DNA of 29,691 bases. Source: Minisyncoccota bacterium (GTDB lineage: Bacteria > Patescibacteriota > Minisyncoccia > Phycocordibacterales > UBA9973). Shown one piece after another: positions 4,441 through 5,529 of the stretch (its first letter is position 1; each line of letters opens with the position of its first letter). A program made the translations under genes and the position numbers. The stretch spans positions 1 to 29,691 of the forward strand of contig DATDUL010000066.1 of assembly GCA_036517715.1 (NCBI GenBank). The letters are read 5' to 3'. The notes below the pieces were generated by a model. The model was not told where the DNA came from and did no database searches. It saw only the letters and a list, made by a program, of their open reading frames with translations.

Positions 4441-5100
4441 TTATCCACAAGGCACAATTGCCTTTAACTTCTCCCAGAATCTTTTAAAAAGAGGGAAGCT
4501 ACTTCGGATGTTTAAACATCCGAGGTCTTCTATCTGTTTCAGATTCTCTTCGTTTATCATTCGCTTTTCTCCTTGCCCGTGTCCATCGTACTTGGCCGGC
4601 AGGGATAAAAGGACGATGACTCCGTCGCTTATGATTCCTTCGATGACCTTCATGCTTTCGCACTGGTCATACCAATCATAATCGGAGTGGATGTGCAGCA
4701 CCTGTACTTCGGTGCTATCTACATCTTTGCGCTCTTGGAAGACGCCTCTTAGATACTCGAGTCCGTAATGCGGACGAGTATCGTTCTCGGTTGCCCGAGT
4801 TGTTAGAGTATCAACAGCATCCAGGAAAGTCTTCCTATCCGCCGTTGGTTCACAGAGTACTTCGTACCTGACCCCGAATGAAACGAGGCCAATCTCTGCA
4901 TACCCACCGTTACGGGGTATGAGCACCATACTGCGTGCCCAACGGTGGACGTCGCTAATGGCGGTGTCCATGCTTCCACTGTTGTCGCTGAAATCAATTG
5001 CGCACAACCGCATGCAGGGATCCAGGTAGATGTCTTGGGCTTGTGTTTTTGGAACAAAAACACACAAAAAGATGGCGAAAAATAAAAGAGCATTTTTCAT
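4441..5100 (-). CDS. Secreted von Willebrand factor A (VWA) domain protein, 219 aa
   Basis: Signal peptide (..KTQA/QD), MIDAS DNSGS, IGLVSFG strand, conserved T (NDT) and D (HSD). Confidence 0.75.
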   Translation of the reverse strand: MKNALLFFAIFLCVFVPKTQAQDIYLDPCMRLCAIDFSDNSGSMDTAISDVHRWARSMVLIPRNGGYAEIGLVSFGVRYEVLCEPTADRKTFLDAVDTLTTRATENDTRPHYGLEYLRGVFQERKDVDSTEVQVLHIHSDYDWYDQCESMKVIEGIISDGVIVLLSLPAKYDGHGQGEKRMINEENLKQIEDLGCLNIRSSFPLFKRFWEKLKAIVPCG

Positions 5101-5190
5101 GAGCGCGTAGTTTAGTTTGTGAAGAATTTTGTTCTACTTTCAGACTACAACAAACCCCCTAAATTGCAAGAGTTTTAAAAAGATACAGTT

Positions 5191-5210
5191 TGCTGGGAGA
5201 CTTGGACTCG
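5191..5210 (-). repeat. 20-bp direct copy of the tRNA-Gln 3' end (att-like)
   Basis: tgctgggagacttggactcg identical at 5191-5210 and 5332-5351. Confidence 0.9.
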
Positions 5211-5331
5211 CCTCTCGCACTGCTGTGCTCGAAACCTTCGTCCTCTCTTCGAGGACTGCGGCCCGTGGTTCTCGTCCAAATACTTCCAAAGTATATAAAA
5301 AATAGTGGCACAAAGCCACCATTTTTATATA
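5211..5331 (-). mobile_element. 121-bp structured insert between tRNA-Gln and its duplicated 3' end (putative minimal or remnant tRNA-targeted element)
   Basis: Flanked by 20-bp direct repeats starting in the T-loop; several hairpins; no ORF or integrase. Confidence 0.5.
5292..5331 (-). terminator. Hairpin immediately downstream of tRNA-Gln
   Basis: Minus strand tatataaaaatggtggc-tttgt-gccactattttttatata. Confidence 0.7.
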
Positions 5332-5333
5332 TG

Positions 5334-5404
5334 CTGGGAGACTTGGACTCGAACCAAGATATCCGCCTTCAGAGGGCGAAGTCCTACCATTAGACGATCT
5401 CCCA
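5334..5404 (-). tRNA. tRNA-Gln(CTG), 71 nt, CCA not encoded
   Basis: TGGGAGA/TCTCCCA acceptor (U1-A72), D-arm GTCT-AATGGTA-GGAC, anticodon arm TCGCC-CTCTGAA-GGCGG, T-arm CTTGG-TTCGAGT-CCAAG, discriminator G followed by CAT. Confidence 0.96.
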
Positions 5405-5529
5405 AAATGGTATTTAACCCATATACCTTAACTTAAAAAAACCTATAAATCAAACAAATAATTCACTTCTGTTTTTTATACAGGCTACCAAAGAGGGGAG
5501 CATTAGCACAATAAGGGTGGCTTTATATA

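Follow-up and report, generated by a model that had tools for sequence, protein, structure and literature searches.

What is the short structured stretch that lies directly behind the tRNA-Gln gene of this Minisyncoccota bacterium, and does it move? The locus falls at positions 5191-5404 of the window, the whole 29,691-nt stretch of contig DATDUL010000066.1 that was analysed. A first-pass annotation had described it, on the minus strand, as a complete tRNA-Gln gene followed by a terminator-like hairpin, GC-rich DNA and a 20-nt segment identical to the tRNA 3' end, and had read the arrangement as either an island scar or a non-autonomous mini-element. Each of the described parts is present, and the features of the locus are as follows.

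5333-5404, minus strand: tRNA-Gln gene (anticodon CTG), intact, CCA not encoded; ARAGORN (5404..5333) and Rfam RF00005 (tRNA), 60.1 bits
5332-5351, minus strand: direct repeat copy 1; repeat search, 100% identity, and alignment of close copies
5191-5331, minus strand: whole inserted unit, 141 nt, comprising one repeat and the interior
5298-5326, minus strand: trailer/anti-trailer hairpin, 12 pairs and then a T-run, resembling an intrinsic terminator for tRNA-Gln
5283-5291, minus strand: acceptor part of the 5' arm (A5), an imperfect complement of the acceptor 3' strand in copy 2 (MFE fold)
5274-5281, minus strand: T part of the 5' arm (T5), an 8-bp helix with 5200-5207 (T-stem 3' strand of copy 2)
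5267-5273, minus strand: joining segment J (GAGAACC), conserved in the subfamily alignments
5240-5256, minus strand: hairpin P3a, 6 bp with a GAAGA loop
5210-5235, minus strand: domain P4 + P5, in which P4 is a 5-bp stem of 5231-5235 with 5210-5214
5217-5228, minus strand: hairpin P5 with an AGCA loop, enclosed by P4
5191-5210, minus strand: direct repeat copy 2, an exact 20-nt match to 5332-5351 at an offset of 141 nt

Anatomy of the unit behind tRNA-Gln

Repeat copy 1 is part of the working tRNA-Gln gene and runs from C56 of the T-loop through the T-stem 3' strand and the acceptor 3' strand to the discriminator and two further nucleotides, such that identity with the tRNA continues beyond the mature 3' end into the trailer. 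An exact 20-mer repeat within about 800 nt has a chance expectation of about 1e-9. The interval between the two copies (121 nt; window ORFs checked) contains no credible ORF and no recombinase, as had been claimed, and the GC content is 0.53-0.60 over 5180-5279 compared to about 0.3 on either side. A longer imperfect palindrome (5283-5301 with 5322-5340), in which the tRNA tail and trailer pair with the 5' arm of the element, has the terminator-like hairpin at its tip; because the hairpin is kept with the element both in G462, a genome of the same genus, and on the metagenome contig L108, it belongs to the insertion.

The tRNA-sense strand alone folds well. The minus strand of 5188-5295 has a folding energy of -37.4 kcal/mol (z = -4.1 versus shuffles), and in this fold the stretch 5291-5274 pairs with the downstream repeat, the helix of T5 with 5200-5207 closing a branched, multi-helix core. 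The conserved GAGAGGCGA motif adjoins direct repeat copy 2. Both hairpins named in the first-pass annotation (5256-5240 and 5228-5217) exist and show compensatory changes in homologs. Its "anti-T-arm", a sequence said to complement the tRNA T-arm around a tandem G.A mismatch, stands in part: the complement is present at 5281-5268, the first 8 nt being base-paired to the downstream repeat. The tandem G.A mismatch, in contrast, is not a special pairing; this stretch, the anti-T-loop portion of the earlier description, is a conserved joining segment (GAGAA or CGAAA across the family), for which a match to the T-loop is unnecessary. In a search of the window unit against Rfam 15, only tRNA passes, all other matches having E > 0.06 and lying far under the gathering threshold; the canonical units of two other loci (L007 and L012) likewise match nothing in Rfam beyond tRNA.

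Homologs behind other tRNA genes and the selected fold

The first-pass annotation had named as its decisive test whether homologs sit behind other tRNA genes with an anti-T-arm that covaries with each host tRNA, and the outcome is positive. The approximately 60-nt core has 15 homologs, in other genomes and in metagenomes, behind genes for tRNA-Gln, Lys, Leu, Tyr, Arg and Asn, the tRNA-Gln hosts including both Gln(CTG) and Gln(TTG). Without exception the copies lie behind a tRNA gene and a terminator-like hairpin, and their arms fit the local tRNA around a conserved core: the 5' arm complements the host's T-arm and acceptor 3' strand, and the latter strand recurs at the 3' end of the unit. With a 1.6-kb query, two copies (88-91% identical) were found in G462, behind tRNA-Gln(CTG) and tRNA-Gln(TTG). 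An exact 23-nt stretch of the core led to six metagenome contigs, and cores on metagenome contigs lie behind tRNA-Lys, tRNA-Leu, another tRNA-Gln and one unidentified tRNA. A covariance model, which had also been suggested earlier, was built (R2) and finds further members in five genomes of the order that belong to other families (G081, G102, G108, G157 and G164), where the host genes are those for tRNA-Tyr, Arg, Asn and Gln. R2 scores window positions 5191-5302 at 126.6 bits, with the window among its 8 seed sequences; independent members score 27-103 bits. Two other searches were uninformative: BLASTN of the 110-nt element against 60 relatives returned only tRNA tails, the query being too short and divergent, and a narrow pattern scanned over 400 genomes of the order matched the window alone, the pattern being too strict.

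The contig L108 is syntenic with the window, with flanks 83% identical and the element at the same site; the unit itself is 96% identical and the adjacent ORF 79%. Because a syntenic relative with this degree of flank identity carries the unit at the same site, the copy is old, inherited vertically since the flanks diverged to 83% identity and itself still 96% identical. As a separate observation, the stretch 5101-5190 of the window, upstream of the 219-aa ORF at 4441-5100 (the ORF that is 79% identical), is 94% identical to L108, which is unusually strong conservation for non-coding DNA.

The fold was evaluated in two alignments. In an alignment of 8 sequences made with MAFFT, 93.3% of cells are paired, compared to 29-52% with the partners slid, and 9 pairs changed on both sides. 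In the alignment of 15 sequences, 93.3% of cells are paired, versus 34-51% slid, and 16 pairs (69 cells) changed on both sides; this second alignment was fitted to the model and so is biased towards the structure, whereas the MAFFT alignment is not. None of 500 shuffles scored as high in either case. At the level of individual helices, 6 of the 8 pairs in helix 1 (T5 with the repeat) change on both sides across homologs. P3a (helix 3) has compensatory changes in all 6 pairs with its loop kept and is 100% paired in the 15 sequences, P4 (helix 4) is 100% paired, and P5 (helix 5) shows compensation in 4/4 pairs. Of two U.G pairs in P4, one occurs in all 14 sequences with letters and the other in 11/14; on the opposite strand these pairs would be mismatches. 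The same asymmetry extends to a set of 31 units with 25 distinct tRNA tails, whose helices contain 32 G.U and 2 A.C among 620 pairs, and in which the tRNA-sense strand folds better than its complement in 26/31 units. The excess of G.U over A.C and the bias towards the sense strand indicate that one specific strand is selected to fold. In these 31 units, matching an arm to the tRNA copy of its own unit gives a score of 19.8 of 22, and to the copies of other units 0.75.

In terms of the larger family, the same layout was recognized behind the tRNA-Gln genes of two relatives (G032 and G041), whose loci were read by eye. In these units the acceptor and T parts of the 5' arm are separated by a hairpin, hp1, whose stem (5 bp, GCAAA/UUUGC) and loop (CUGC) hardly vary. 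A 20-base hp1 pattern, run over 185,579 species genomes, hit 33 loci, of which 6 are chance matches in coding sequence and 27 are units, distributed over Patescibacteria, Burkholderiales, Elusimicrobia and Bdellovibrionales. Host genes inside the fetched stretch encode tRNA-Leu, Ser, Arg, Sec, Thr, Gln, Asp or Asn; a few hp1 units have no tRNA gene nearby. R1, a model of the 5' module, matches in 77/151 genomes of the genus of the window, with up to six matches per genome (this count includes the unpublished genomes G460 and G528, on which nothing else rests).

Neither R1 nor a motif scan finds hp1 in the genome of the window (G000), and compared to canonical units its position is occupied by a 2-nt spacer (5281-5282), which together place the window unit in a hairpin-less subfamily. 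The core features of this subfamily (J, P3a, P4 enclosing P5, and the GAGAGGCGA motif) are all present. A hairpin-less unit at another locus (L115) has a different core type, so hp1 is a dispensable module. The 141-nt unit is therefore a hairpin-less subfamily member of a larger tRNA-tail family.

Boundaries, arrays and cargo

The limits of the unit are sharp. In three close copies, homology starts in the last tRNA bases, takes in the trailer hairpin and ends with the final base of the repeat, beyond which the sequences are unrelated. The repeat begins at the same T-loop position in the close copies, and this shared start fits a crossover in the T-loop, as the first-pass annotation had proposed. 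It had also advised looking for an empty allele at tRNA-Gln in relatives, and one is found: in G003 (L011) a distinctive trailer motif stands directly after tRNA-Gln, whereas in G462 (L088) the same motif stands after the second repeat. The copy behind tRNA-Gln(TTG) on contig C12 of G462 has the local TTG-type tail as its right repeat (19/19) and a decayed CTG-type tail on its left, the pattern to be expected of a right repeat derived from the target and a left one brought by the element. Read as sequence comparisons, the empty and filled sites and the tails on C12 point to insertion.

A motif of T-arm-like sequence recurs after tRNA-Gln or after the last repeat in L004, L005, L011, L065, L085 and L088, and in three loci a conserved UGAGA-loop hairpin and a terminator come next; the motif may be another small structured element or RNA.

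Units also occur in tandem arrays (three units of 199 nt in L035; also L038 and L053). The last units of the arrays are truncated, within the hp1 loop in L038 and L070 and just after hp1 in L053, where a frame fragment resembling an integrase comes next. Breaks or nicks may occur at hp1. Other arrays carry genes. Behind tRNA-Trp of G450 (L096, G450:C1:68000-79500), a module occurs three times in identical form, with 2.3-2.9 kb of co-oriented genes between successive copies and a serine-recombinase fragment about 4.5 kb beyond the array, and a similar cargo array lies behind tRNA-Glu of G524 (L097, G524:C36). The cargo ORFs of these two loci are mostly without a Pfam match, one belonging to the UDG family. 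In G462 (L095), an ORF of 193 aa (1258-1838) lies between tRNA-Gln(TTG) and the element copy; read by eye, its sequence resembles a SAM-dependent methyltransferase, and it would be an example of cargo in the hairpin-less subfamily. Co-oriented cassettes with folded end modules are accordingly seen in L095, L096 and L097, and the window holds a single gene-less unit. In the cargo arrays, the tRNA-like copy to the left of internal units is decayed and the right copy, the partner of the arm, is intact, which argues that the arm-repeat helix is a constrained structure.

The enzyme that would move such units was sought in their surroundings. No recombinase lies in or beside any of the about 70 units examined, and no integrase adjoins the window unit. 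Clustering of the neighbouring proteins at 27 loci gave just ABC ATPases and DnaX, and the cargo ORFs include no recombinase. Among five genomes of the genus, a member of the Phage_integrase family is present in 4/5 (one gene each), a large serine recombinase in 4/5, a reverse transcriptase in 2/5 and a Y1 transposase in 2/5, and none of these four families is linked to units in the five genomes. The sole Phage_integrase-family match of G000 is on another contig (C5), and the recombinase families other than Phage_integrase are patchy across the five genomes.

Several known mechanisms were considered and rejected. A retroviral-type primer-binding site does not account for an arm that is interrupted and complements the trailer rather than CCA. 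A TnpB-type scaffold with a 3' guide was dismissed, as no such protein is found and the "guide" is paired inside the unit, and an IS110 bridge RNA was dismissed since the two tRNA-matching segments cover the same target positions and not adjacent ones. Large serine recombinases do not generate long repeats and were set aside on that ground. Casposons and rolling-circle elements of the IS91/HUH type were rejected, there being no Cas1 or Rep in or beside the units examined and the Y1 transposase being patchy; the cuts in the hp1 loop at the array ends of L038 and L070 keep the idea of nicking alive as a lead only.

Competing readings and relation to known systems

The reading that we favour, on balance and from sequence comparison, is that 5191-5331 is probably a non-autonomous, site-specific integrative mini-cassette mobilised in trans. 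Its mobile form would be a small circle or single strand bearing the 3' end of tRNA-Gln, starting in the T-loop, in a single copy, together with the terminator-hairpin trailer, the inverted tRNA tail (the 5' arm) and the conserved folded core. Judging by the anatomy, integration would proceed by recombination inside the identity block, near its T-loop end. The tRNA gene would be rebuilt with a 3' end supplied by the element (repeat copy 1) and with its terminator, and the original tRNA 3' end would be displaced 141 bp downstream as repeat copy 2. The folded single strand would most likely be the recognition module for a recombinase supplied in trans. Template switching at near-palindromes is known to allow one arm to be corrected against the other, and such switching at the near-palindrome of arm and tRNA tail could keep the arm matched to each tRNA.

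The extension of the repeat into the trailer, the sharp boundaries, the empty and filled sites and the patchy distribution lend mobility somewhat more weight than not, and the tandem and truncated units, the single core with arms for many tRNAs and the cargo arrays incline us, with similar reserve, the same way. Several observations speak against it. For the copy in the window, neither an excision product nor a circle nor a polymorphic empty site came to light. None of the five genomes tested holds more than one gene of the Phage_integrase family, and a single protein would need to accept 14 or more tRNA species as targets. Among 2.9 million viral contigs there is no true member (0 matches in one scan, 3 chance matches), and a plasmid collection gave no match. 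Finally, 96% identity at 83% flank identity fits a host function as well as it fits mobility; the element does not stand out in this respect, since the stretch 5101-5190 reaches 94% too.

A host function is the basis of the most serious alternative, namely that the unit is a functional structured RNA, transcribed by read-through from the tRNA promoter, in which an acceptor/T-stem-like stem closes the core to form a tRNA mimic. It could act as a processing signal, as a decoy or as a binder of a tRNA-recognising protein, and the copies would be paralogous genes kept matched to the neighbouring tRNA by gene conversion. The complex conserved architecture, with invariant junction nucleotides, strong covariation and strand-specific G.U pairs, is what such an RNA predicts. 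The 5' arm corresponds to the acceptor and T-stem 5' strands of a tRNA, the closing helix mimicking the acceptor/T stack; the unit has outlasted the adjacent ORF in identity to L108 (96% versus 79%); and the cargo arrays keep the arm-pairing repeat perfect as the other tRNA-like copy decays. We nevertheless regard this reading as rather unlikely. The unit stands directly behind a terminator-like hairpin with a U-run, from which no promoter-like site separates it; arrays and cargo cassettes show the same layout, and no Rfam family matches. Identity with the tRNA past its mature 3' end, tandem arrays with truncated last units, presence in 77/151 genomes and an empty/filled site are, moreover, insertion-like.

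The island scar of the first-pass annotation leads to a different alternative, a passive relic that neither moves nor functions: the unit would be the attP arm region of an integrase island, left between attL and attR as flank after internal deletion. A tRNA 3'-end direct repeat that starts in the T-loop is the signature that Williams, in 2002, reportedly gave as classic for tyrosine-integrase islands, and the repeat in the window starts there. The existence of cargo-carrying versions and the integrase-like fragment in L053 are also consistent with this notion. However, none of the about 70 units has an integrase inside or beside it, the size is the same (about 110-200 nt) across phyla, which independent deletions would not give, and one core is combined with arms for many tRNAs. 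Compensatory substitutions and the preference for G.U over A.C reflect selection on a single-strand fold, and it is this covariation that makes a passive scar unlikely; we consider the relic improbable. The mini-element half of the earlier alternative is thus favoured, and the plain scar is argued against by homologs with tRNA-matched arms. A chance local duplication or an assembly artefact, the latter being a concern raised at the outset, has the small size of the unit in its favour and nothing else; with the same arrangement in the independent assemblies G462 and L108 and covariation across 15 homologs, its probability is negligible.

Among known systems, the nearest parallels to the putative mini-cassettes are integron cassettes and their attC sites (including CALINs). 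As in integrons, relatives of the single gene-less unit in the window include co-oriented cassettes stacked behind a fixed site; in both systems cassettes end in a structured imperfect inverted repeat whose single-strand fold is conserved rather than its sequence, some are gene-less, and one repeat arm resembles the platform site. Here, however, the 3' ends of genes for many different tRNAs act as platforms; the arms copy the tRNA tail and, as read from the sequence, lack the conserved attC core-site boxes; and the module holds a conserved multi-helix core, mostly with an invariant 5' hairpin. A search for an IntI-type integrase or attI found neither. Tentatively, and with more doubt than conviction, we suggest a previously unrecognised integron-like cassette system, in which tRNA gene tails would serve as platforms and the units as recombination modules, the target being chosen through complementarity in the folded single strand and the units moved by a host or unlinked enzyme, in several phyla including the tiny genomes of Saccharibacteria.

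Islands in tRNA genes (phage/ICE type, tycheposons, CIMEs) similarly insert in the 3' part of the tRNA and rebuild the gene, are flanked by partial tRNA repeats and push older insertions downstream. Unlike them, the present units have no integrase, span 110-200 nt rather than kilobases, and carry an inverted target copy and a folded core under single-strand selection; tycheposons carry an integrase and are without such a folded module (bioRxiv 10.1101/2020.12.28.424599). Elements that exploit Xer (IMEX, e.g. CTX phage) share the absence of their own recombinase, tandem integration and a one-strand hairpin that rebuilds a duplex copy of the chromosomal target, but the target here is a tRNA gene tail and not dif, and no dif-like site was recognised in the units. 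Use of the host's single tyrosine recombinase by these units is pure conjecture. MITEs and other non-autonomous transposons are also small and gene-less, with inverted ends, many copies and mobilisation in trans. Their repeat is a short target-site duplication, whereas here the element itself brings the repeat along as 12-25 nt of tRNA sequence (20 nt in the window, conserved with the element, so that the window unit does not qualify as a MITE/DDE element); site and orientation specificity are strict, and no transposase-carrying parent was found.

Literature searches by word or by sequence found no description of the family, and gene-less folded insertions behind many tRNA genes are widespread and seemingly undescribed. 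New here are the hairpin-less subfamily, the comparisons of empty with filled sites and of element with target repeats, the strand test and the cargo arrays. If mobile, the units would be among the smallest site-specific integrative elements known, would show gene-cassette stacking behind tRNA genes in ultra-small genomes with almost no mobile-element machinery, and would bear on gene exchange among Patescibacteria. Target-tracking arms around a constant core suggest a principle of target recognition that might be reprogrammable. If the units are instead RNAs, they form a large new class of tRNA-mimicking structured RNAs. Either reading explains many "orphan" partial tRNA repeats and GC-rich hairpin clusters that are left blank in annotation.

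Two further arrangements were noticed around tRNA-Gln. One is a mini-insertion of a different kind, located 5' of the gene body (L108:590-667; also L005, L006, L008, L011, L088 and L095), which measures about 68 nt and consists of a duplication of the first ~11 nt of the tRNA, a GC-rich hairpin of ~38 nt and a D-loop copy; it is present in the syntenic L108 and absent at window position 5405, an empty site. In L013 (G015), a divergent partial tRNA-Gln copy, extending from the anticodon stem to the 3' end, lies about 95 nt behind tRNA-Gln(TTG) and is preceded by two GC hairpins; it may represent a different insertion class, with a crossover in the anticodon loop.
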